This document shows positions 13,765 through 60,090 of a DNA stretch of 64,000 nucleotides, in pieces; position 1 is the stretch's first letter, and every line of letters begins with the position of its first letter. The notes beneath the pieces were generated by a model that had not been told where the DNA came from, did no database searches, and saw nothing but the letters and a program-made list of their open reading frames with translations. Origin of the DNA: an uncultured Candidatus Saccharibacteria bacterium. Its GTDB lineage: Bacteria > Patescibacteriota > CPR2_A > CAYFQT01. The DNA lies in NCBI GenBank assembly GCA_964345445.1, contig CAYFQT010000038.1:30893-94892 (forward strand). The letters run 5' to 3'. The position numbers and the translations under genes were made by a program.

Positions 13765-13772
13765 GTAATCGT

Positions 13773-23986: not shown

Positions 23987-24162
23987 CAGTAGCTAAAACA
24001 CACTAAAGTTACACTAATAAATCACTAAATTAATACTAAAAATAAAGATAGAGTTTTAACTTGTAAAAATACTTTAGTATTTTTACGAAAGAGGAGAAAC
24101 AAACTGAAAGCTGGAGTAATTGCCTATAAGGAAATTAGGAAAGCGGCAGGTTTGTTTGGACG

Positions 24163-24594
24163 ATGTTTATAGGAGAATTTACACATTCAGTTGATAGTAA
24201 AGGAAGATTGGCTGTTCCAGCCAAGTTTCGAAAAAAATTAGCCACAGGCGCTGTAGTTACTCGAGGCTTGGATGATTGTCTTTTTCTATATCCTAAAGTT
24301 GAATGGGAAAAACTAGCTAAAAAGTTATCCCAGCTTCCTATAAGTCAGAAGAATGCCAGGGCTTTTGCTAGATTAATGTTAGCAGGGGCTTATGATGTAG
24401 ATTTAGACAAACAGGGTAGAATAGTCATTCCTGCCTACCTGAGAAGATATGCTTCGATTAAAAATGAAACAGTCATAGCAGGACTTTATAGTAGATTGGA
24501 AATCTGGAGTACAGCTCGCTGGAATAAATATAAAAAAGGAGCAGAGGAAGAAAGTACTGATATTGCCGAACATCTGGGAGAGTTAGGTGTGTAA
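24163..24594 (+). CDS. mraZ: transcriptional regulator MraZ
   Basis: MFIGEFTHSVDSKGRLAVPAKFR N-terminus, two MraZ repeats. Confidence 0.92.
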   Translation: MFIGEFTHSVDSKGRLAVPAKFRKKLATGAVVTRGLDDCLFLYPKVEWEKLAKKLSQLPISQKNARAFARLMLAGAYDVDLDKQGRIVIPAYLRRYASIKNETVIAGLYSRLEIWSTARWNKYKKGAEEESTDIAEHLGELGV

Positions 24595-39188: not shown

Positions 39189-39278
39189 TTTTTCCTCTCT
39201 TATTGAAGCCTAATTACATAGACTTCTCCTTTTTCGATAAAATACTTAAAGCATTTTATCAAGTAAAATGATTTAAAA

Positions 39279-39629: not shown

Positions 39630-42482
39630 TCAACCAGAGTCTGATCTTCCTTTGGACGAAATTTTTACCTCTTCTCCTTCTTTCAACTCATGTGTTTTAC
39701 TTTTTTCTTTTTGTTCTTTTTCTTCAGTTACTGAGTTTTGGGTCTTTTCTTTTGAAGATGAAAGAGTATCAGAAGGTTCTGTGGGTTTATGTGATATCTT
39801 AATTTCTTCTTTTTCTTTTATTGGCCTATGATGTATTATAGAAGGCTTTGCTTCTTTTTTTTCTTCAGCTATTTCTTCTTGAGGTTTTTCTTTTACTTTT
39901 ATACCTTCTTCTTGAGTAACTTCTTCTAAAATATCTTCTGCAGTTATTCTTACCTCTGGGTATTTTTCTACTCTAATAGTTTCTCTGGGTCTTTTTTCTT
40001 TAAATTTCTGAGGTTGAGTTTCTTCTTCGTTTTCCTCTTCTGTTTCTTCTATCCCTGCCCAACGAGCAATTTTTTCTTCTACTACATTTTTTGGGGTGCT
40101 ATATCTTTCTTGTGATAAAAGAATAACCTTTTCTTTATTTTTATTTTCCCCTTTGAGTGGAGGTAAAGTTTGAGCAGAAAAAGCAGGAGAAGTTACCCCA
40201 TTAATAGCAAGTTTTAAATAAATATTATATTTATCCAAATTTACTATATCAGTTTCATCAAAGACTGGGGCTACTTCTTTGGCTAAGAATGTTGCATCTG
40301 CTGCGCCTACTCTAAAGGAAATTAATGTTCCAATATTGCCAAAAACAGCATCACGAACTACTTCAGGCATTTGGGCTATATATTGGTTAGCTACTATTAA
40401 ATTTAATCCATATTTTCTTGCTTCAGATAATATTTTGGCAAATGATTCAGTAGCAAAGTTTTGAAACTCATCAACATATAGATAAAAATCTTTTCTCTGT
40501 TTTTCTGGGATGTCTACTCGACTCATAGCTGCTAACTGGAGTTTAGTAATCATCATTGCTCCTAAAAGAGAAGAATTGTCTTCCCCTATAGTTCCTTGAG
40601 CTAATTTGATTAATAATATTTTTCCTGAATCAATAACTTCTCGCATATCGATAGTGCTTTTAGGCTGCCCTATAATGTTTCTTATTGTTGCCGAAGATAT
40701 AAACTGCCCTACTTTGTTTTGAATTGGAGAAATTGCTTCTGTTACTAAACGAGGATTTGATTGATATCCAGGAAACTCTTGAGTCCAAAATCTTTTTACT
40801 TCTATATCGGTAATTTTCTTAACCACTTTTTTTCTAAATTTTTTATCAGTAAGCATTCGATTTACTGATAACATTGTAGAATTAGGATAATCTAACAAAG
40901 CTAATAAAGTATTTCTTAAAATATGTTCTAATCTAGGACCCCAGGTGAAAGCCCAGATTTTTTGAAAAATGGAAATTAATCCTGAACATATCAACCCTTT
41001 ATAGTCAGGGTCCACAGCTTCTAGTGGATTGAAAGCAATAGGATATTCTCGATCAGAAGGATCAAAGATAATTACATCATTTATTCTTTCAGAGGGAATG
41101 AAATTTAATATATCGTCAATTAGGTCTCCATGAGGGTCCACTACTCCTACTCCTTTTCCTGCTCGGATATCAGAAATAGCCATATTTCTCAACATATTAG
41201 TCTTGCCCATCCCAGTTTTACCAATTAAATACATATGTTTTCTTCTGTCATCAGTTTTTATTCCAAATTTTTGTCTTATATGTCTAAAGTTTGTCTCGGC
41301 AAATAAAGTTAGTTCGCTAGATGGAATAACTTTTTCTTCAATTGGTAAGTTATCAGGAGGTTCTCCTTTTTTAGATTTTGTCCAAGCGATTGTGGGAGTT
41401 TCTACTCCTATAGTTGGAAGATGAAATATTGAAGCTAATTCTTCAGTATTTAAAACAAAGCCAGAGTCGGAAAACAAACGTGCTTTATAGTCTTGAAGAA
41501 AATTTTCACCTTCATAAGTTTTGTCTGATTTGAAACCATTTAGGTTAGCGGTTGAAAATTGTTTAAATGTTCCAATAAGAGATTGAAGATGAGGATTTAC
41601 AATTTGTCCTTTCTTGCAAACATATGCTGCTCTTATTTTTGTATCAAAACCAAGTTTGGATACTTTTTCCTCAATAGCCGAAAGCTGAGTCTCTTGAGCA
41701 GATGAGAGTTGAGGAGGTCCGGAGGCACTTTCTTCAGTGGTTCCTGGTGTAATCAAAGAAGTAATTTGTCCTAAAACTTTAGCTAAAAATCCAAAAGCTG
41801 TTCCTATGCCAAAAGCTTCTGGGTTTCCACCAGCTTTTACTATGTCTATATAAGAAAGACCTTTTTTTTGCCATTCTTCCCCTGAAGGACGAACGAGTAT
41901 TTGAATCCAAATTTGTTCATTATTTTCTTTTAATTTTCCTAAAACCCCAGTGATTCCTGCCAGAGGATCTACTTCGAAATCAGGAAAGGTTTTAATAGGA
42001 AAAAAATCTAATTTGTTTAAGAGAAGTTGAGTGCCCATAATTTGTTTTTCTTTTAAATCAATCTCAGTGTAATCAGGTACTTTTTCAATTTCTACTTCAG
42101 GATATTGGGCATAAATTTGTCCTTCCACAAAATCTCTTAGATGTTCTGGAACCCAAATAAAAAATCCAATTTTTCCATTTGTTGAAGCAATTTCAAAACT
42201 AATGTGTTCTTGTAATGTTCCTTCCAGAAATCTTTTTTTAGTAGGTTTATAAATTCCATGTAGAGAAGCAAACATCATTTCTGCTGCAGTAGGTCCTTTT
42301 TCATTTTCTTTTGGAATATACAAAGATAAAAGAACGTATTTTTGTTGAGAAACCCAGTTTAATTTTCTACGGCTTAAAAAAGACAAAAATAAAAGTAGAG
42401 GTACTAGAAACCATATACCCCAAAATAAAAATTTACCAGTTTGTGGTAATATTTGGCTTAAAATTTTAAATAAGCCTTCCAT
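39630..42482 (-). CDS. membrane-anchored P-loop NTPase of the type IV coupling protein (TraD/TraG/VirD4; FtsK-HerA superfamily) type, with long Glu/Lys-rich C-terminal tail
   Basis: N-terminal TM (FLFWGIWFLVPLLLFLSFL), Walker A GKTGMGKT, Walker B YLYVDEFQNF about 240 aa later, ANQYIAQ block, 220-aa low-complexity EK-rich tail. Confidence 0.7.
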   Translation of the reverse strand: MEGLFKILSQILPQTGKFLFWGIWFLVPLLLFLSFLSRRKLNWVSQQKYVLLSLYIPKENEKGPTAAEMMFASLHGIYKPTKKRFLEGTLQEHISFEIASTNGKIGFFIWVPEHLRDFVEGQIYAQYPEVEIEKVPDYTEIDLKEKQIMGTQLLLNKLDFFPIKTFPDFEVDPLAGITGVLGKLKENNEQIWIQILVRPSGEEWQKKGLSYIDIVKAGGNPEAFGIGTAFGFLAKVLGQITSLITPGTTEESASGPPQLSSAQETQLSAIEEKVSKLGFDTKIRAAYVCKKGQIVNPHLQSLIGTFKQFSTANLNGFKSDKTYEGENFLQDYKARLFSDSGFVLNTEELASIFHLPTIGVETPTIAWTKSKKGEPPDNLPIEEKVIPSSELTLFAETNFRHIRQKFGIKTDDRRKHMYLIGKTGMGKTNMLRNMAISDIRAGKGVGVVDPHGDLIDDILNFIPSERINDVIIFDPSDREYPIAFNPLEAVDPDYKGLICSGLISIFQKIWAFTWGPRLEHILRNTLLALLDYPNSTMLSVNRMLTDKKFRKKVVKKITDIEVKRFWTQEFPGYQSNPRLVTEAISPIQNKVGQFISSATIRNIIGQPKSTIDMREVIDSGKILLIKLAQGTIGEDNSSLLGAMMITKLQLAAMSRVDIPEKQRKDFYLYVDEFQNFATESFAKILSEARKYGLNLIVANQYIAQMPEVVRDAVFGNIGTLISFRVGAADATFLAKEVAPVFDETDIVNLDKYNIYLKLAINGVTSPAFSAQTLPPLKGENKNKEKVILLSQERYSTPKNVVEEKIARWAGIEETEEENEEETQPQKFKEKRPRETIRVEKYPEVRITAEDILEEVTQEEGIKVKEKPQEEIAEEKKEAKPSIIHHRPIKEKEEIKISHKPTEPSDTLSSSKEKTQNSVTEEKEQKEKSKTHELKEGEEVKISSKGRSDSG

Positions 42483-42535: not shown

Positions 42536-43681
42536 CTATTTTTTATTTATCTTTTTTAGCCCATAAGTACATTTTTTTATTCTTGTAAATTGAGGTTTTT
42601 CTTGAAGATTTAAAACTATAGTATTAGGATTTACTTGACGTACTTCTAACACTTTTTTAATAATTTCATCTTTGCTAAGCGGTTTTCCTTCCTTTTCCAA
42701 TATTTCTTTAATAACATTTGCTACTGTTCCTGGTTTAAGCCCCCATTCAGAAAGTCCATAAATTCCTCTTCCTACTAAAACAAATTTTTTATCTTTTACT
42801 AATTCATTATGCACTGCTTGACTGTTTACTGGTTTTTTATCAAAATTTGCTTCGGTAATCATTTGAGCGACTGTTCTAAAATGAACAGGTTTTTTATATT
42901 TTCTTAAAACATATAAAGCTTTGTCTCTTATATTTTTAGGATTAATATTTGACCAATATTTAAGTCCCCATCTGCCATCTTCAGTTTTCATAATATTTCC
43001 ACTTATTTCTAAACAAGATAAGAGAAAGTTATCAGATAACATAAGTTGATTTTGCTTATAAAATTCTTGTATTTTGATTTTTTGTAGAATATAGTCGGAT
43101 TCTTGAACTTTTTGAGCTTTTTGTAGTATTTTCTCAAATGATAAAATTGTAGGTATAGTCAATCTTTGAGGATTTTTTAATAGACTCCAAGATTTTTTTA
43201 ATTTTTCCTGTTTTATTTTGATAAATTTATCTTCTGTTTCTAGGATGAATTTTAAAGCATTAATATTTTCATTACTTTGTTTTATTGAATTTAGGGTTTT
43301 TTGAATAATTTTTTCTTCAGTTAATACTCCCCCACTCTCTTTTATTATTTCTATAAGTAGATTAATTGCTGGGTTTAATATCTTTTTTGAAGAAGGTTGA
43401 TTTATTTTTATAAGACTCATTTTTTCTATTTGACGAATTCGTTCTCGAGATACTGAATATTCTTTTCCAATTTGTTCTAATGTCTGTTTCGCCTCGCCTT
43501 GTAGAGCAAAACGCTTAATTATTACTTCTTTTTCTCTAGGTTTAAGATTTTCAAGAACAGAAGATACTACCTTAGCTGGTTCAAATTCTTGTAAGGCATT
43601 TTTATGATTTATAGATATTATTTTGTCTAAAATAGAAGATTGAGTTTGTTGTTTTTCTTCATTATTCATTTTTTTCTCCAT
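42536..43681 (-). CDS. DNA-binding protein with sigma70 region-4-like HTH and C-terminal HARE-HTH-like winged helix
   Basis: LKPREKEVIIKRFAL...TLEQIGKEYSVSRERIRQIEKMSLIKI matches sigma region 4.2; C-terminal VLVGRGIYGLSEW is the HARE-HTH hallmark. Confidence 0.6.
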   Translation of the reverse strand: MEKKMNNEEKQQTQSSILDKIISINHKNALQEFEPAKVVSSVLENLKPREKEVIIKRFALQGEAKQTLEQIGKEYSVSRERIRQIEKMSLIKINQPSSKKILNPAINLLIEIIKESGGVLTEEKIIQKTLNSIKQSNENINALKFILETEDKFIKIKQEKLKKSWSLLKNPQRLTIPTILSFEKILQKAQKVQESDYILQKIKIQEFYKQNQLMLSDNFLLSCLEISGNIMKTEDGRWGLKYWSNINPKNIRDKALYVLRKYKKPVHFRTVAQMITEANFDKKPVNSQAVHNELVKDKKFVLVGRGIYGLSEWGLKPGTVANVIKEILEKEGKPLSKDEIIKKVLEVRQVNPNTIVLNLQEKPQFTRIKKCTYGLKKINKK

Positions 43682-47969: not shown

Positions 47970-49115
47970 TTAAGTATTTAATTCTTTTTTTCGCCTAAAA
48001 AGTTCTTTTTGGGCTATACCCAAAGCTCCTAAGCCAAGTAATATAACTATAAAATTAATAATTCCTCCTATAAAAGGAATATTTATAACAATCAAAATTA
48101 ACACTAAACCTAGAAATAAACTTTGTACCGTCGGTATATCTTGTTTTTTAGTAAAGTAAACTAAAGTTCTTTTACCTAAATATAAACCTACAAAGATTTT
48201 GCTTATATATATAACTATAATATATATACATAAAGTAATTAAAGCTAAAGGGACTCCTATTATAGTTATAAATAATAAAATACAGATTATAGGCACTAAA
48301 AACAATAAAACAAATCCTATTCCTAAACTTAGGAGAGATTTTTTCTGTAAATTATCGACGACTTGATTAGATTTTTTAGGAAAAAGATACATCAAAATCA
48401 ATCCTATAATTATCAAAGAGGCTAATGATATTATTTTTCCAATTAATATTCCTTTTACATTTGCTGTTTTTCTTACCTGTTGAGGAGTTTTATGTGTTGT
48501 TTGTCCTTTAACTTTACCTTGAATTTGAGCTTCTTTATCACTTGTATAATTTAAATCCCCGGCAATTACACTTTTTTCACTTAGAGTTAAATTTTCACAA
48601 CTTACATTTACATTTCCTTCAATCCCTCCACCAATTTCCAAATTTCCAACCTCACCTCTAACTTTTTTCTTTACTTTTCCATTGATTTTAACTGTTCCTC
48701 CATATACTATTACATCACCTTCAATTGAACTTTCTCCTCTAAAATCTACATTGCCAGCAAATACGATTACATCACTCATTACTGTTCCGCTTAAGGTTAC
48801 ATCTGCCCCAGCTACTCTGATGTCATCTCTTACTATTCCAGAGATATTTATTATCTGACCAACAGCAATTACATCACCAGAGACATTGCCTGGGATATTT
48901 ATTTTCCTTCCTGCAGCAATTACATCACCAGAGACAATTCCATCTATATCTATATTATTAGCAGCGGTTATAAAATCATCTTCTAAAACTTGGTCTTTAG
49001 AAACAAAAGTGTAATCTCCTGTACGGATTTCAGTAGCTTGGGCAATAGTTCCAAAGAAAAAAATTGAAATAAATAAATATAAAACTATTCCCCAAATTAT
49101 TTTTTTAGTTTTCAT
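47970..49115 (-). CDS. bactofilin/DUF4097-like beta-helix repeat protein with N-terminal signal and C-terminal multi-TM region
   Basis: Repeated GDVIA.G..I.I.G.V.G motifs. The ORF track starts at TTG 49163; ATG MKTKKIIW with GAGGGAGG SD near 49115 is the likely start. Confidence 0.55.
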   Translation of the reverse strand: MKTKKIIWGIVLYLFISIFFFGTIAQATEIRTGDYTFVSKDQVLEDDFITAANNIDIDGIVSGDVIAAGRKINIPGNVSGDVIAVGQIINISGIVRDDIRVAGADVTLSGTVMSDVIVFAGNVDFRGESSIEGDVIVYGGTVKINGKVKKKVRGEVGNLEIGGGIEGNVNVSCENLTLSEKSVIAGDLNYTSDKEAQIQGKVKGQTTHKTPQQVRKTANVKGILIGKIISLASLIIIGLILMYLFPKKSNQVVDNLQKKSLLSLGIGFVLLFLVPIICILLFITIIGVPLALITLCIYIIVIYISKIFVGLYLGKRTLVYFTKKQDIPTVQSLFLGLVLILIVINIPFIGGIINFIVILLGLGALGIAQKELFRRKKELNT

Positions 49116-49577
49116 ATTTTCCTCCCTCGTCGAAGTAAACTTCAAGCTTTGGCGATCCCACAAAGTAGAATCGCTCTCGCTTTTCGTTCACTTCTCCTCT
49201 TTTGGCAAAATACTTTAGTATTTTGCTTAGTGAAATATTAAAAATCTCAGTTTCCATTCCAAAATCACCTTGGTGTTTCTTGGTGTTTAAAGCTTCCGCT
49301 TATTTCTTCTCTCCGTTAAAATGCTAAAATATTTTAACAGGCTTTTTTGATAATAATTATTCCTTTGTGGGGTCGAAGGCCCCGACGACTCGCTTCGGAT
49401 CGCCCGAATCGAGGCGAGAACACAAGTGGATGTCGGGACAACTTTCATTATTTATATTCATTGTAAAAATTGAAGCCCTATCGTAACACAAGTGGATAAA
49501 AGGACAATTTCTTTTGTTAAATTAGTTAAATTACCATTTATTCTATTCTACTTTAATTCTTTTTTTTGTGCAAATTT

Positions 49578-49612
49578 TAAAAAGGGGTCGGTATATACCG
49601 ACCCCTTTTTAC
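49578..49612 (-). terminator. perfect 22-bp palindrome terminator (GGGGTCGGTATATACCGACCCC) flanked by A- and T-runs
   Basis: Symmetric hairpin immediately after the stop of the 49636..50637 gene. Confidence 0.7.
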
Positions 49613-49635
49613 ATTTAATATAGAACTCTTTTGTT

Positions 49636-50637
49636 TTAAGGAAAAGTAGGTGTTTCATAAATATCAGGTGTCTCGTAGTAATATTCTGGCATTTCATATA
49701 AAGATTCACCACCATACCAATTCATATAATATTCAGTCATAATATCTTCCAAAGATTTGGTTTTTTTAGGCTTTTCTACTTCTATTGGTTTATTATAATC
49801 TGAGAGGGTTATTTCCAAATTCACACCAATTTTATCTTTCGTATCAGGAATTTTAATATTAAATTTACTTTTTGTCTTATACAACAGATTATCTTTTTTG
49901 CCAATCCATAATTCAGCAGATAGTTCATCAATATTATCTAAAAGTTCTTCTAAACTTTTTTTATTTGAAAGGGTCATTTCCTCTCCTGTAATAATATCAA
50001 TATTTTTCTTCATAAATTCCAATAAAGCATCTTTATCTATAATTACTTGGTAATGATAACATTTTACTCCAGAGACAGTCTCCGGTTTTAAAGCTTTAAT
50101 TTCGGAAAATTCAGCTTCTTTAATTAATTCATTAAAAAATTTGCTAAAATTTAATTCCATATCTTCTCCATATAATCCAGAGAAATCAGAAGAAGATACT
50201 TTAATCCATTCATTTTCCAAAAAACTTAAGTCAATAGGGATATATTCCAAAGGAATATTGGGAATTTCTTTGATTATAAAGTATAATTCATCCTCGATTG
50301 TTCTTATTTCTAATTGACCGGAAAAAGTTATACCACCAGTTTCAAAGCTTCCGGAAATGTCATTTTTTGTTTTAGGATTATTAATATCTAATTTATCAAT
50401 ATCCCCTTCTGCGCTTAATTTTATATTAAATGGTTCATCATCAGTTTCTCCACTTAAGGTTAAATTATCCATTTTATAATGGTAAGTTTCAGTTTCTTTA
50501 CTGCTCATTTTTTCTTGCATTGCTGCCACAACTTTCTTTGGGGTTTTATATAGGTATTTATAAGCAAAAAATCCACCTGCGCCTAATACTCCTACTCCTA
50601 ATACAACAGCAATAATAATTTTTACTTTTTTAGTCAT
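49636..50637 (-). CDS. hypothetical secreted/membrane-anchored protein
   Basis: N-terminal TM/signal (IIIAVVLGVGVLGAGGFFAY), 333 aa. Confidence 0.45.
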   Translation of the reverse strand: MTKKVKIIIAVVLGVGVLGAGGFFAYKYLYKTPKKVVAAMQEKMSSKETETYHYKMDNLTLSGETDDEPFNIKLSAEGDIDKLDINNPKTKNDISGSFETGGITFSGQLEIRTIEDELYFIIKEIPNIPLEYIPIDLSFLENEWIKVSSSDFSGLYGEDMELNFSKFFNELIKEAEFSEIKALKPETVSGVKCYHYQVIIDKDALLEFMKKNIDIITGEEMTLSNKKSLEELLDNIDELSAELWIGKKDNLLYKTKSKFNIKIPDTKDKIGVNLEITLSDYNKPIEVEKPKKTKSLEDIMTEYYMNWYGGESLYEMPEYYYETPDIYETPTFP

Positions 50638-50816: not shown

Positions 50817-51224
50817 TTATCTTTCATATTTTTCAATAAAACTTTTTGGTCTAATAACTTCAATCTTTCCAAATTTCTTTATTTTCAACAAATGTTTATC
50901 ATTACTAATAATATAATCAGCTCTAGCTTGTTTTGCACATTCTAGAAATTTATTATCTTCAGGATCCTCAGATACTATATGTAATTTTTTAATATTTTTA
51001 ATTTCTTTTCCAATTTGAAAGAATTTTTGTATTTTCTTTTTATATTTTTGATCAGCTTTAATATTATTTAAAATAAAATTTATCTCTTTTTTAATTTTCA
51101 AGCTAAATACAGGAATAAATTTTCTTTTAATACATAAATTGATAATTTTATATGAAGCAGATTTTTTGTTCCAATATGCTCCAATAAATAAATTAGTATC
51201 TAATACTACTTTTTTTCTATTCAT
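50817..51224 (-). CDS. PIN-domain protein (orphan, no adjacent antitoxin ORF)
   Basis: VVLDTNLFI N-terminal acidic motif, DPEDNKFLECA, ADYIISNDKHLL. Confidence 0.6.
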   Translation of the reverse strand: MNRKKVVLDTNLFIGAYWNKKSASYKIINLCIKRKFIPVFSLKIKKEINFILNNIKADQKYKKKIQKFFQIGKEIKNIKKLHIVSEDPEDNKFLECAKQARADYIISNDKHLLKIKKFGKIEVIRPKSFIEKYER

Positions 51225-51448
51225 CTAAGTTCACTTTTTGGTTTAATATATAGCTTATAGAAAAAATTCATTTAATTTATCTGAAGGCAGTCTTTGAGAA
51301 AACCATATCGCAGCCCCCCCAAATAAATCTTCACCTTAGAAAAACTTTAGATGGGGAGGTGAGATCTGAGTAGCGCCTGGGGCAAGCCTATCAAAATTAT
51401 TCAATTAGAGGCGACTGCGTGTTTTCGAGGTGGATAAAATCTTGTAGA

Positions 51449-52462
51449 TTATTTAAGTTCACTTTCTGCCTTTTTAATAGCTTTAGGTAAAAATTTAATA
51501 ATATCTGAAGCAATAATAGATCTTTGACCAATTTTCTTACAAGCTAAATCTCCAGCTAAACCATGTAGATATACAGCAGTACAGGTAGCTTCAAAAATTT
51601 TTGTTAGATTTTGAGCACATAATGTAGAAATAATTCCTACCAAGACATCACCCATTCCCGCAGTAGCCATAGCAGGATTTCCTGTTTTATTAATTACTAT
51701 TTGTCCTTTTTTATTTGAGATTACTGTGTTATTCCCTTTTAAGACTACAATAAATTTTAATTTTTCAGAAAGAGCGGGAGCAATTTTTAATCTATTTTTA
51801 TCAATAAATTCCGGTGTCTTTGATTTTTCTCCTTTTTCTTTGAGTGCATTAAATAATTTACTTGCTTCTTGTGGGTGAGGAGTAATGACAGTTTCTGTTT
51901 TTCTTTTGGAAATATATTTTTCTATTTCAGTTTTATCTTTTTTTTGTTTAATTACCTTTATCCCTTTTGTTAAAGCATTGATTCCGTCAGCATCTAAAAC
52001 CAGAGGTTTGCCTATAGCAAATATTAATTGCCAGATTAATTGAACTGTTTCTGGATTAGCTGATAATCCAGGACCTAAAGCTATAATATCAAAATCATCT
52101 TCTTTATTTTTAATTTGATCAAACGCTTTTAAACTTAGGCTACCCTCTTTTGTAGAAGGCAAAGGTAAAGTCATAGCTTCAGGAAGAATTTTTTTATAAA
52201 TATCTTTTAGTTTTTCTGGAAAACCTAAAACAACAATTCCTCCCCCTGATCGAAAAGCAGATTCACATACCAGCGCTGCGGCTCCTGTCATTCCTTTTGA
52301 TCCAGCAATAATTAATACTTTACCTCTTTGGCGTTTATAAATATTTTGAGGCATTTCCCAAAGAATATCTGGAAATAAAAGTTTATTTTGAGCCTGTAAG
52401 AAACAAGGTTCTTCGAATGAAGTGAGCAGGTTCTTATTTTGAATTTGAGGTTTTATTCGCAT
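51449..52462 (-). CDS. nnrD: ADP-dependent NAD(P)H-hydrate dehydratase (YjeF C-terminal-domain family)
   Basis: GSKGMTGAAALVCESAF and TAGMGDVLVG motifs. Confidence 0.8.
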   Translation of the reverse strand: MRIKPQIQNKNLLTSFEEPCFLQAQNKLLFPDILWEMPQNIYKRQRGKVLIIAGSKGMTGAAALVCESAFRSGGGIVVLGFPEKLKDIYKKILPEAMTLPLPSTKEGSLSLKAFDQIKNKEDDFDIIALGPGLSANPETVQLIWQLIFAIGKPLVLDADGINALTKGIKVIKQKKDKTEIEKYISKRKTETVITPHPQEASKLFNALKEKGEKSKTPEFIDKNRLKIAPALSEKLKFIVVLKGNNTVISNKKGQIVINKTGNPAMATAGMGDVLVGIISTLCAQNLTKIFEATCTAVYLHGLAGDLACKKIGQRSIIASDIIKFLPKAIKKAESELK

Positions 52463-57134: not shown

Positions 57135-57545
57135 TTACTCTTTTTCAGTCTCTTCCTCAGATTTGCTGGCGGAATTCAGAATGCTTTCTATTCTTTCTAC
57201 CACTTCTTCTAAAGAATGTTCTGACTTTATCATATAATCAGCCGCTCCTTCTTCTAGCCCCTTCATTACTTCATCCATCTCTGAGAGATTAGATAGAATT
57301 AAAACTGGGATAGAAGATGTTTGAGATTTTTCTTTTAATTTTTTTAAAACTTCTCGTCCATTTAATTTAGGAAGTAAAATATCCAACAAAATAATATCTG
57401 GTTTTTCAATATCAACCATTTTGATACCTTCCCTCCCATCTAAAGCTATTGCCACATCATATCCTTCTCTTTGTAGTTTATTCTGATAAATCTTATTCAA
57501 AGCAGTATCATCTTCTATTATTAGAATTTTAGATTTATTGTTCAT
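57135..57545 (-). CDS. stand-alone response-regulator receiver (CheY-like)
   Basis: ILIIEDD, phospho-acceptor D in ILLDILLP, 136 aa, no output domain. Confidence 0.8.
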   Translation of the reverse strand: MNNKSKILIIEDDTALNKIYQNKLQREGYDVAIALDGREGIKMVDIEKPDIILLDILLPKLNGREVLKKLKEKSQTSSIPVLILSNLSEMDEVMKGLEEGAADYMIKSEHSLEEVVERIESILNSASKSEEETEKE

Positions 57546-57665
57546 TTTAACCTCCTGAGGTCTCTGTTATCCATTCATTACAGAGGCCGAGGCCCTATCG
57601 GAACCGGAGGTGGATGATAGGGCATTATTATTTTATTACTTAATAATAAGTGTTTGATGGGACTT
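57546..57665 (-). ncRNA. conserved two-hairpin 5' leader, copy L1
   Basis: More than 85% identical to L2 at 59878-60003. Hairpin 1 is GCCCTATC..(16-nt loop)..GATAGGGC, hairpin 2 is GGCCTCTGT..ACAGAGACC, then GGAGG SD. The hairpin-1 loop CCACCTCC is complementary to the SD. Confidence 0.55.
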
Positions 57666-57712
57666 TTTAGCTAATCTTATTTTACTACATTATTGGCAAA
57701 TATGGAACATTT

Positions 57713-59589: not shown

Positions 59590-59877
59590 TCATTCCACCA
59601 CTTTATAAACTATATCATGTTCTCGAGCATGTTCTTTGACTTTCAAACCGATAGCATCACCTTTTTTAGCCTCTTTGACATCTTCATGCTCAATCTGCAT
59701 TGATTCTACTTTTTGAGTAAAGTCAGAAGTAGCTCCTTTAATATGGACATTATCTCCTACTTTTAAAGTATCAGAAAGTTCAACAATAGCTACTCCTATT
59801 TTATTAAAATAGTGGGTTACTTTACCGACTTCTTTCTCTTCCTTTTCTTTTTTTTCTTCTTTTTTTTCTTCAGCCAT
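59590..59877 (-). CDS. small EF-Tu-domain-2-like beta-barrel protein with Lys/Glu-rich N-terminus
   Basis: 95 aa; G.V.....L...L.VGD...I.G.......V.S.Q......V..A..GD.IG pattern. Confidence 0.4.
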   Translation of the reverse strand: MAEEKKEEKKEKEEKEVGKVTHYFNKIGVAIVELSDTLKVGDNVHIKGATSDFTQKVESMQIEHEDVKEAKKGDAIGLKVKEHAREHDIVYKVVE

Positions 59878-60003
59878 TTTTTAACCTCCCGAGGTCTCTG
59901 TTTACCCATTCATTACAGAGACCGAGGCCCTATCGAAACTGGAAGTGAATGATAGGGCATTATTATTTGTTATTATTATCCTTAATAATTAGTGGATGAT
60001 GGG
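59878..60003 (-). ncRNA. conserved two-hairpin 5' leader, copy L2
   Basis: Same architecture as L1: GCCCTATC/GATAGGGC and GGTCTCTGT/ACAGAGACC stems; loop CACTTCC pairs with the SD GGGAGGT. Confidence 0.55.
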
Positions 60004-60090
60004 ATATTATTAATTTTAATTGTTTGTTACTTAATTTATATAATCCCTATAGCAACATTCAGTAACTATTTGTAACATCTAGTAAATTTT

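Follow-up and report, generated by a model that had tools for sequence, protein, structure and literature searches.

We analyzed the spacer at 49116-49635 of a 64,000-nt stretch of contig CAYFQT010000038.1 from an uncultured Candidatus Saccharibacteria bacterium (the window). The spacer lies between two minus-strand genes, the downstream one encoding a DUF8173 protein with a bactofilin-like β-helix. We conclude that it is probably a composite promoter and 5′ leader that was built by turnover of leader modules, in which two degenerate copies (A and B) of a structured 5′-untranslated-region (5′-UTR) motif, M1, are relics and a gene-proximal copy of a second module, M2-A, is the working leader. 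A preliminary description of the region, made from the sequence alone, had proposed a novel small RNA (sRNA) or a riboregulatory leader. The latter suggestion was right in kind, the spacer being best described as a 5′ leader composed of RNA modules outside Rfam; the core that had been flagged is probably a relic, and the proximal module that looks functional had not been singled out.

A structured 5′-UTR motif, M1

An intact copy of M1 is about 83 nt long and consists of an 8-bp helix (P1), a 16-nt loop that begins with AUYCACYUCC, and a 9-bp helix (P2) whose loop is AAUGAAUGGAUA. P2 is extended by 3 bp, formed between CUC and the GAG of the Shine-Dalgarno sequence (SD; UCGGGAGG), which forms the 3′ end of the motif and is followed 5-8 nt later by the start codon (AUG). 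The AUYCACYUCC of the P1 loop resembles the 3′ end of 16S rRNA.

The window contains two intact copies on the minus strand, at 57543-57625 and 59877-59960, which are the L1 and L2 leaders of the preliminary description. They precede a response-regulator gene and the gene of a 95-aa protein with a match to EF-Tu domain 2, the latter followed by a gene for a 535-aa membrane protein. A pattern scan of metagenome contigs (given below by L numbers) revealed further copies before the polynucleotide phosphorylase (PNPase) gene in L037 and before a gene in L035/L036 that we label DUF3467-like from its sequence; M1 also precedes two further genes in L035. A covariance model built from five sequences (R1) then recovered more diverged copies in L035, the RNase J copy in L039, and two copies in L043, which precede the genes of RNase J and a DUF4430 protein. 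The M1 copies outside the window are located as follows.

L037: 2651-2733
L035: 7035-7117, 6326-6418 and 7929-8034
L039: 15496-15626
L043: 9889-10004 and 6273-6428
L005: 1-66

The peripheral parts of the motif are variable. The RNase J copy of L039 carries a 50-nt GC-rich insertion in the P1 loop, and in L043 the P1 loops are enlarged by insertions of 23-33 nt and a P2 loop by one of 66 nt, with an additional hairpin separating P1 from P2. The family as a whole has three variable hairpin sites, with insertions of 23-50 nt in the P1 loop and up to 66 nt in the P2 loop. The M1 copies score between 25.9 and 111.5 bits with R1, including the partial L005 copy, and between 53 and 106 bits with R2, a second model built from ten family members with the spacer left out; the two intact window copies score 100-106 bits.

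Both helices of M1 covary. In the model-fitted alignments 92-94% of the cells at M1 pairs are paired, 9-11 of the 20 pairs are changed on both sides, and none of 500 shuffles reaches the observed level; when the 3′ partners were slid as a control, pairing fell to 32-55%. The CUC:GAG helix is 96-100% paired in the family alignments. A loop-loop pseudoknot between AUYCA and UGGAU was also considered; the sequences are compatible with it and show no compensatory change, and we make no claim for it.

The intact M1 loci matched no Rfam family at E ≤ 1, and no relevant described motif matching M1 was found in the literature. A search of genome contigs with an 18-nt M1 pattern (17 specified bases) returned 27 chance matches, in high-GC genomes. 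Judged by its sequences, M1 is thus a real structured RNA family outside Rfam and a concrete candidate for a new cis-regulatory RNA. Intact M1 most likely controls translation initiation by SD occlusion, which would be brought about by the CUC:GAG extension of P2 and possibly also by the loop that is similar to the 16S rRNA end. It combines a conserved core with SD pairing; the genes behind it are functionally unrelated and do not allow a ligand to be inferred.

Orphan half-copies of the M1 5′ end (CCCATCA..CACT plus ATTATTAAG), which have no 3′ partner, are present about 30-45 nt upstream of intact M1 copies at the following positions.

Window, ~57660-57680, minus strand
Window, ~59995-60015, minus strand
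L039: 15468-15492
L035: 6437-6455, minus strand

The layout of half-copy and M1 parallels that of copies B and A in the spacer, and the half-copies may be promoter elements, alternative pairing partners or duplication scars.

Degenerate M1 copies in the spacer

The preliminary description had linked the spacer to the L1/L2 leaders through the word GCCCTATCG. This link is real, as the repeat units of the spacer are homologous to the L1/L2 motif. The word is found at 49475-49483, directly before the second repeat copy, and elsewhere in the window only at 57592 and 59927 (0.06 occurrences expected). The direct repeat itself is present, but its coordinates needed correction: the copies lie at 49419-49444 and 49485-49510, with a spacing of 66 nt and not 57. 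They are 81% identical over 26 nt and share an exact 13-mer, AACACAAGTGGAT, which is found nowhere else in the 64 kb. Searching 221 kb on both strands with R2 assigned the repeats to two M1-like units.

49448-49507, minus strand: M1 copy B, 24.1-27.8 bits with R2 (E = 0.0017 over 221 kb) and 20.5 bits with R1
49354-49441, minus strand: M1 copy A, 21.9 bits with R2 (E = 0.006 over 221 kb), 56% GC
49419-49510 (span), minus strand: direct repeat of the preliminary description, corresponding to the P1 5′ strand and loop 1 of copies A and B

The only other matches of the R2 search over 221 kb at E ≤ 0.1 were the genuine copies and the A and B of contig L001. Like the intact copies, A and B share the strand of the gene that follows them, and homology to both modules is confined to the minus strand, the best plus-strand model scores being 5-8 bits.

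Both copies share with intact M1 the P1 5′ strand and loop (GYCC-N4-AUCCACUU) and the P1 3′ strand (GAUAGGGC or GUCGGGGC). In copy A the 8-bp P1 that closes the AUYCAC loop is formed by 49439-49432 (GUCCCGAC) and 49386-49379 (GUCGGGGC); it is fully paired in the model, with a probability above 0.9 for six of the eight pairs. The loop of this copy reads AUCCACUUGUGUU and contains an inserted GC-rich hairpin, P1a (49418-49389), at the same loop position as the insertion in L039. P1a is homologous to what is inserted in that RNase J leader (UUCUCGCCUYGAUUCGG...CGAAGCGRGUCG); the local alignment scores 45, and none of 1000 shuffles does as well. In copy B, P1 (GUCCUUUU/GAUAGGGC) is weakened, retaining seven of the eight pairs, wobbles included, with one mismatch.

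The remaining parts of the motif have been lost. Copy A is devoid of P2, 34 model positions being replaced by 10 nt, and the P2 columns of copy B are mostly mismatched, the helix having been lost through many transitions. The loop of both copies has CUUGUG, as compared with the anti-SD-like CUUCC or CCUCC of intact M1. The copies, located 240-390 nt from the start codon, end ~240 and ~330 nt before the ATG at 49115, no start codon follows them, and neither carries an SD at a start codon; their R2 scores (21.9 and 24.1 bits) are below 50 bits, compared with 53-106 bits for intact copies. Because the scores are far below those of intact M1 (53-111 bits) and P2 is lost, we read A and B as tandem-duplicated, decayed paralogues.

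The GC enrichment that had drawn attention to the spacer is largely a property of copy A. This 88-nt core is in the top ~0.1% of 88-nt windows, and 49369-49418 reaches 70% GC; enrichment does not extend to the rest of the spacer, whose 5′ third (49442-49635) has 26% GC. The whole 521-nt spacer has 35% GC and the window 30.5%. Both hairpin words reported earlier were found, GGGGTCGAAGGCCCC at 49369-49383 and CTCGC-TTCGG-ATCGC-CCGAA-TCGAG-GCGAG at 49389-49418. Nested hairpins do exist, but the GGGG/CCCC hairpin has just 4 bp and is outcompeted in the thermodynamic ensemble by the 8-bp P1.

A few additional M1 candidates were rejected. A single giant M1 with a 197-nt P2 loop would depend on a 13-nt pairing that has a probability of ~0 and costs 14 kcal/mol; moreover, its 3′ arm belongs to the inner stem of hairpin H2 of the M2 module, which covaries with the mraZ leader (see below), and copy A, when aligned to L043, proves to be a unit of full length whose P2 has decayed. 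A third M1 fragment, GGAAUGGAAACUGAGAUUU (49260-49242), is not significant, its score being reached by 96 of 1000 shuffles. An M1-like copy before a PIN-domain gene (~51380-51448) had no model match on the right strand and a fold z-score of -0.49.

The homology to M1 also bears on the idea that the direct repeats are a transcription-factor site at the DNA level, consisting of two GTCC-N4-ATCCAC(TT) boxes 66 bp apart, from which the promoter downstream would be regulated. The 13-nt core is exactly identical in both spacer copies, and the orphan boxes, which have no 3′ partner, stand upstream of M1 at both window loci, in L039 and in L035. Within the family, however, the box forms the 5′ half of a helix with covarying strands, a signature of RNA pairing and not of protein-DNA recognition. 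The box spacing varies by locus from ~30 to 66 nt, and no candidate DNA-binding regulator was identified, the nearby response regulators being short (123 and 136 aa). We therefore regard a DNA-level site as highly improbable.

The M2 module, a putative promoter plus leader

The proximal part of the spacer (49236-49116) is similar to the sequences that precede mraZ (24052-24165, plus strand) and a gene for a 148-aa protein without a Pfam match (39275-39186, minus strand). Local alignment scores of 45-52 are reached by none of 500 shuffles, and three good copies and one decayed copy of this module, M2, are distinguished. In particular, 49234-49132 corresponds to 24056-24160 before mraZ and to the copy at 39267. 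M2 is characterized by TTNACT-16/17-TATTTT inside a palindrome, the box AAAGAGGAGAA, and a hairpin that starts immediately after the box. The elements of the spacer that belong to M2 or lie next to it are the following.

49303-49339, minus strand: M2-B, a decayed copy, UGUUAAAAUAUUUUAGCAUUUUAACGGAGAGAAGAAA, aligning with the mraZ M2 at a score of 51 (0 of 500 shuffles)
49268-49285, minus strand: short tandem repeat, CACCAAGAAA then CACCAAGG, beside which the N run of L001 starts
49207-49234, minus strand: putative promoter core of M2-A, -35 TTCACT (49234-49229), 16 nt, -10 TATTTT (49212-49207)
49191-49202, minus strand: SD-like box AAAGAGGAGAAG without a usable start codon, kept in all three M2 copies
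49132-49194, minus strand: H2, a three-tier hairpin with outer stem GAAGUGAAC/GUUUACUUC, a middle stem and inner stem GCGAUUCUAC/GUGGGAUCGC
49113-49128, minus strand: true SD GAGGGAGG (49128-49121) and ATG (49115-49113) of the DUF8173/bactofilin-like gene

We interpret TTNACT and TATTTT as likely -35 and -10 elements. The M2-A core overlaps the palindrome GCAAAAUACUAAAGUAUUUUGC (49226-49205), and the same layout recurs before mraZ (24056-24083, plus strand) and at 39267-39239 (minus strand). At the last site M2 directly follows a terminator-like hairpin, as read from the sequence, and therefore a promoter must lie inside M2 there, which favors this interpretation.

In the predicted short transcript, only a few nucleotides would separate the SD-like box from the 5′ end. 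A GUG follows its GAGGAG after only 2 nt, which is too close for a start codon; judging by this spacing, the box is probably not the SD of a leader peptide. The adjoining hairpin H2 is very stable, with a folding free energy of -32.5 kcal/mol, 55% of the ensemble and a z-score of -5.85. The mraZ leader has the same architecture, in which 8 of the 20 pairs are changed on both sides. The whole leader is more structured than expected by chance (z = -4.3 for the minus-strand fold and -5.8 for that of the plus strand), and the local structure signal comes mostly from the terminator and H2.

Several observations concern mraZ and its possible connection to the operon. The mraZ copy of M2 has no SD beside the ATG, and folding of its hairpin may bring the upstream GAGGAG box into SD position. 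Just upstream of the promoter-like module of mraZ, at 24002-24039 (plus strand), there are four direct YACTAA boxes with 10-11 bp spacing, plausibly the MraZ operator. In M2-A, too, CACTAA and TACTAA are found at a distance of 12 nt (~49232-49215), a hint that MraZ may also control the bactofilin-like operon.

Terminator and putative distal promoter

At its 5′ end the spacer contains two further elements, identified by hairpin features and by a consensus scan.

~49578-49611, minus strand: intrinsic terminator of the upstream 333-aa gene, a symmetric hairpin GGGGTCGGTATATACCGACCCC between A5 and T5
49545-49574, minus strand: putative distal sigma-70-like promoter, TTTGCA-18-TAGAAT

The terminator hairpin has 15 pairs, seven of them G-C, with T5 on both strands, and begins 25 nt past the stop codon at 49636; such a GC-rich hairpin with a T-run just after a stop codon is typical of intrinsic terminators, and its symmetry suggests that it could work from either direction. 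In the related contig L003 a hairpin terminator of partly different sequence occupies the same place. Transcription from the distal promoter is predicted to start near 49538, and the promoter stretch TTTGCACAAAAAAAAGAATTAAAGTAGAATA is identical in L003. The consensus scan detected no terminator between copies A/B and the downstream gene and no plus-strand promoter-like site inside the spacer.

These elements bear on the proposed sRNA, which would be an independent plus-strand transcript starting near 49360 and ending at the bidirectional terminator at 49611. A terminator is indeed available, with a T-run after its hairpin on the plus strand too, and the plus-strand fold is the one with the stronger z-score (-5.8). 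However, this z-score is dominated by the terminator and by stems that mirror those of the minus strand, the spacer offers no plus-strand promoter, the M1 and M2 homology is entirely on the coding strand, and the unit, a block of about 390 nt, is absent from the syntenic spacer of L003. The suggestion of a novel, free-standing sRNA is accordingly not supported, and we consider it highly unlikely.

Searches for coding and known RNA elements

The spacer lacks any coding or known-RNA signal. An Rfam 15 gathering scan of the whole window reported only tRNA-Gln, and at E ≤ 10 the best local match in the spacer scored 35.6 bits against a gathering threshold of 228.9. The two scans thus yielded solely terminator-driven noise for the spacer, in agreement with the earlier failure to recognize a known RNA there. 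Likewise, no transfer-messenger RNA hallmarks had been seen, and a tRNA/tmRNA scan with ARAGORN reports nothing in the spacer and only the tRNA-Gln at 13772 in the window. The spacer itself does not show the features of a metabolite riboswitch, its M1 copies being decayed.

The statement that no open reading frame (ORF) fits holds in effect. The spacer does contain ORFs of 41-53 aa, but the five small ORFs have no Pfam match at E ≤ 1, and the most promising one, of 50 aa at 49108-49257 (minus strand) and preceded by an SD-like sequence, has no relatives among 1.84 billion protein representatives.

Comparison with relatives

We compared the leaders of DUF8173 orthologs among close relatives. 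In L003, whose DUF8173 protein is 74% identical to that of the window, the gene order is kept (thioredoxin-reductase-like, Carb_kinase, unknown protein, DUF8173, LiaF-TM). The L003 spacer is just 127 nt long, and ~390 nt of the window spacer (roughly 49125-49510) have no counterpart in it. In L005, which encodes an 88% identical protein, a near-perfect L1/L2-type M1 copy stands directly before the start codon; this copy is partial (model positions 19-83), being cut by the contig end, and has a canonical P2 and an SD at the start codon. The last 19 nt before the window gene, GACGAGGGAGGAAAAUAUG, align with the 3′ end of this intact M1 (GACCUCGGGAGAAAAAUAUG), which suggests that new modules recombined in at the SD and that older ones were pushed upstream. 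The leaders of DUF8173 orthologs among close relatives therefore contain no module, M1, or M1 relics together with M2.

A third relative adds to this diversity: before a 63% identical DUF8173 ortholog, L006:1-163 contains a different direct repeat, CGCTGGAGTGAAACGAAAGCACTAATTAA, twice and ~70 nt apart, so that the DUF8173 leader is different again.

The distribution of M1 is equally patchy at other genes. It is present before DUF8173 in L005 and absent in L003; before RNase J it is present in L039 and L043 and absent in L044, L045, L046 and L047; before PNPase it is present in L037 and absent in L038, L039, L040 and L042. This patchiness suggests that 5′-UTR modules are exchanged or replaced on short evolutionary time scales, with old copies decaying upstream. 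The rpsO-pnp spacer ranges from 95 nt in L040 up to 650 nt in L037 (2080-2730), in comparison with L038, L039 and L042. Its conserved blocks include a CTGAAACAC...GTGTTTCAG hairpin, and M1 is found at the pnp start in L037 only.

A block that is present in this genome and absent in L003 might instead be a single insertion resembling a miniature inverted-repeat transposable element (MITE), or the remnant of an array of clustered regularly interspaced short palindromic repeats (CRISPR). A 13-nt inverted repeat exists in the spacer, and the 66-nt period of the direct repeats resembles a CRISPR repeat-plus-spacer unit. The block, however, is not found a second time as a unit, either in the window or in the loci fetched; what recurs are its individual modules, each time in 5′-UTR position. 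The inverted repeat is internal and not at the borders of the block, and no target-site duplication can be seen. The direct repeat has just two copies, with 81% identity, the neighboring genes scanned against Pfam encode no Cas domain, and the spacer has no match in phage and viral collections. An origin of either kind is thus highly unlikely.

Functional status of copies A and B

The most serious challenge comes from the idea that A and B have kept a function within a long riboregulatory leader transcribed from the distal promoter. Their P1 and P1a hairpins would bind the M1 factor or ligand, or the copies would switch H2 by a 13-nt pairing and in this way tune translation of the operon. The following points weigh against our interpretation of the copies as relics, and in part against the composite-leader model in general. 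P1 of copy A differs from the copy B/canonical GCCCUAUC/GAUAGGGC at four positions per strand and yet stays fully paired, and P1a is intact and homologous to that of a genuine member; together these features could reflect continued structural selection and not decay. The 13-nt loop is identical between A and B, which hints at constraint or at a recent duplication. Where the P2 5′ strand should be, 49375-49363 forms a 13-nt inverted repeat (12 of 13 positions matching) with 49165-49153; it could act as a long-range substitute for P2, and it overlaps the 3′ strand of the inner stem of H2, so that it could compete with H2. The distal promoter is perfectly conserved in L003, and a transcript from it would meet no terminator between the copies and the gene. 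As to the model in general, both promoters and the transcript ends are predictions from sequence. The promoter pattern of M2 is not enriched in the window (5 matches versus 2.4 expected). The M1 covariation was computed on model-fitted alignments of ~10 related sequences, and M1 is known from 10 good sequences in perhaps four or five closely related uncultured genomes.

Nevertheless, what the copies have lost argues for relic status. P2, the anti-SD loop (CUUGUG in place of CUUCC) and the position beside a start codon, all of them gone here, belong to the best-conserved features of intact M1. The long-range pairing has a probability of ~0, at a cost of 14 kcal/mol, and conflicts with the inner hairpin that covaries with the mraZ leader. 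Finally, the block is absent in L003, whereas the 5′-cut copy of L005 has the canonical P2 and an SD at the start codon. Continued function of A and B is therefore conceivable but rather unlikely in our view.

Proposed model of leader turnover

According to the composite-leader model, the spacer would serve the operon that begins with the DUF8173/bactofilin-like and LiaF-TM genes and would have formed by successive gain and decay of modules. Read along the minus strand, the predicted order of elements is terminator, distal promoter, M1-B, M1-A, M2-B, short tandem repeat, M2-A, SD and ATG. The distal promoter would be common to the relative L003, which seems to have just a short 5′ UTR there. 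New modules would recombine in at the SD and displace older ones upstream. Copies A and B are thus probable relics that at most may add stable structure to the long transcript from the distal promoter. M2-A, with its own putative promoter, most likely does the working control of the DUF8173 gene, and its 5′-proximal SD-like box and H2 plausibly determine how stable the mRNA is and how well it is translated, much as STAB-SD sequences and 5′ hairpin stabilizers do in bacteria with RNase J.

A more far-reaching and distinctly tentative proposal, which we hold to be improbable as a whole, is that M1 represents a new class of ligand- or factor-responsive 5′-UTR RNA in a low-GC clade related to Patescibacteria and the candidate phyla radiation (CPR), with control of RNase J and PNPase, besides other genes, and mobility as a cassette. 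The spacer would then be a fossil record of cassette turnover, comprising the distal promoter, two M1 relics, an M2 relic and a live M2, and copy A, in which P1 and P1a are kept, could have remained active within the long transcript as a decoy or sensor.

Under the composite-leader model the spacer is neither a new sRNA gene nor a conserved riboswitch, and it should not be counted as either. The more interesting object is M1 itself, which sits before RNase J, PNPase and other genes in an uncultured lineage. If such turnover is general, what looks like a long structured spacer in a small AT-rich genome may often be a module graveyard and not a single functional RNA.

Genomic context

The flanking genes of the spacer are the following.

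49636-50637, minus strand: upstream gene, 333 aa, no Pfam domain
47970-49115, minus strand: downstream gene, 381 aa, DUF8173 with bactofilin-like β-helix

The downstream gene is the β-helix gene noted in the preliminary description, which had placed the spacer correctly upstream of it; a gene for a 61-aa LiaF-TM protein follows in the operon. Two other contigs, L001 and L002, hold identical copies of the locus. At L001 ~1275-1290 (corresponding to window ~49150-49290) there is an N run with ~125 nt missing, which begins beside the CACCAAG tandem repeat; evidently, the spacer repeats disturb assembly.

With regard to the source lineage, PNPase and RNase J of the clade contigs L037 and L039 are only 55-60% identical to their nearest named homologs, which belong to Patescibacteria, Berkelbacteria, CPR2 and some Firmicutes.

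Other genes of the window show further differences and possible mobile components. A PIN-domain gene (50817-51224) and the 224-nt spacer that precedes it are absent from the syntenic region of L003. The stretch at 51300-51449 before this gene has 45% GC, no Rfam match and a fold z-score of -0.49, and an Rfam scan of the 51.2-51.5 kb spacer returned nothing credible. A 950-aa TrwB/TraG-like type IV coupling protein is encoded at 39630-42482 (minus strand) and adjoins a gene at 42536-43681 (minus strand), whose product carries sigma-70 region 4 and HARE-HTH domains; RtcB and archease genes are close by, as seen on L001. The TrwB/TraG-like region is possibly part of an integrated conjugative element.

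Comparison with known systems

Intact M1 is most similar in layout to the 5′-UTR elements that sequester the SD, such as translational riboswitches, RNA thermometers and ribosomal-protein leaders. Like them, it is a structured 5′ UTR, here of ~83 nt, that ends at the SD; through its GAG, the SD pairs with the CUC at the base of P2, and a hairpin loop contains the anti-SD-like CACCUCC. As in riboswitch aptamers, the loops are conserved and the hairpins at the periphery differ in length. Unlike the known elements, M1 matches no Rfam family, and its genes have no common pathway (RNase J, PNPase, response regulator, DUF3467, DUF4430, DUF8173 and EF-Tu-domain-2 protein). Copies A and B of the spacer differ from these elements in a more basic respect, as they lack the SD-occluding part altogether.

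The closest analogs of M2 are found among mRNA stabilizers. In Bacillus, STAB-SD sequences and 5′-terminal stem-loops stabilize mRNAs (the cryIIIA, aprE and ermC leaders) by blocking the 5′-exonuclease RNase J. M2 likewise has a strong SD-like GAGGAG a few nucleotides from the predicted 5′ end, uncoupled from a usable start codon, and this box is followed by a very stable hairpin, as in the 5′ stem-loop stabilizers. The setting is also comparable to that in Bacillus, since relatives of the lineage encode RNase J. In contrast to the STAB-SD leaders, with which M2 has no sequence relationship, so that a stabilizing role would be one by analogy, the box of the mraZ copy may be a real SD, which folding of H2 would place near the AUG, where there is no other SD.

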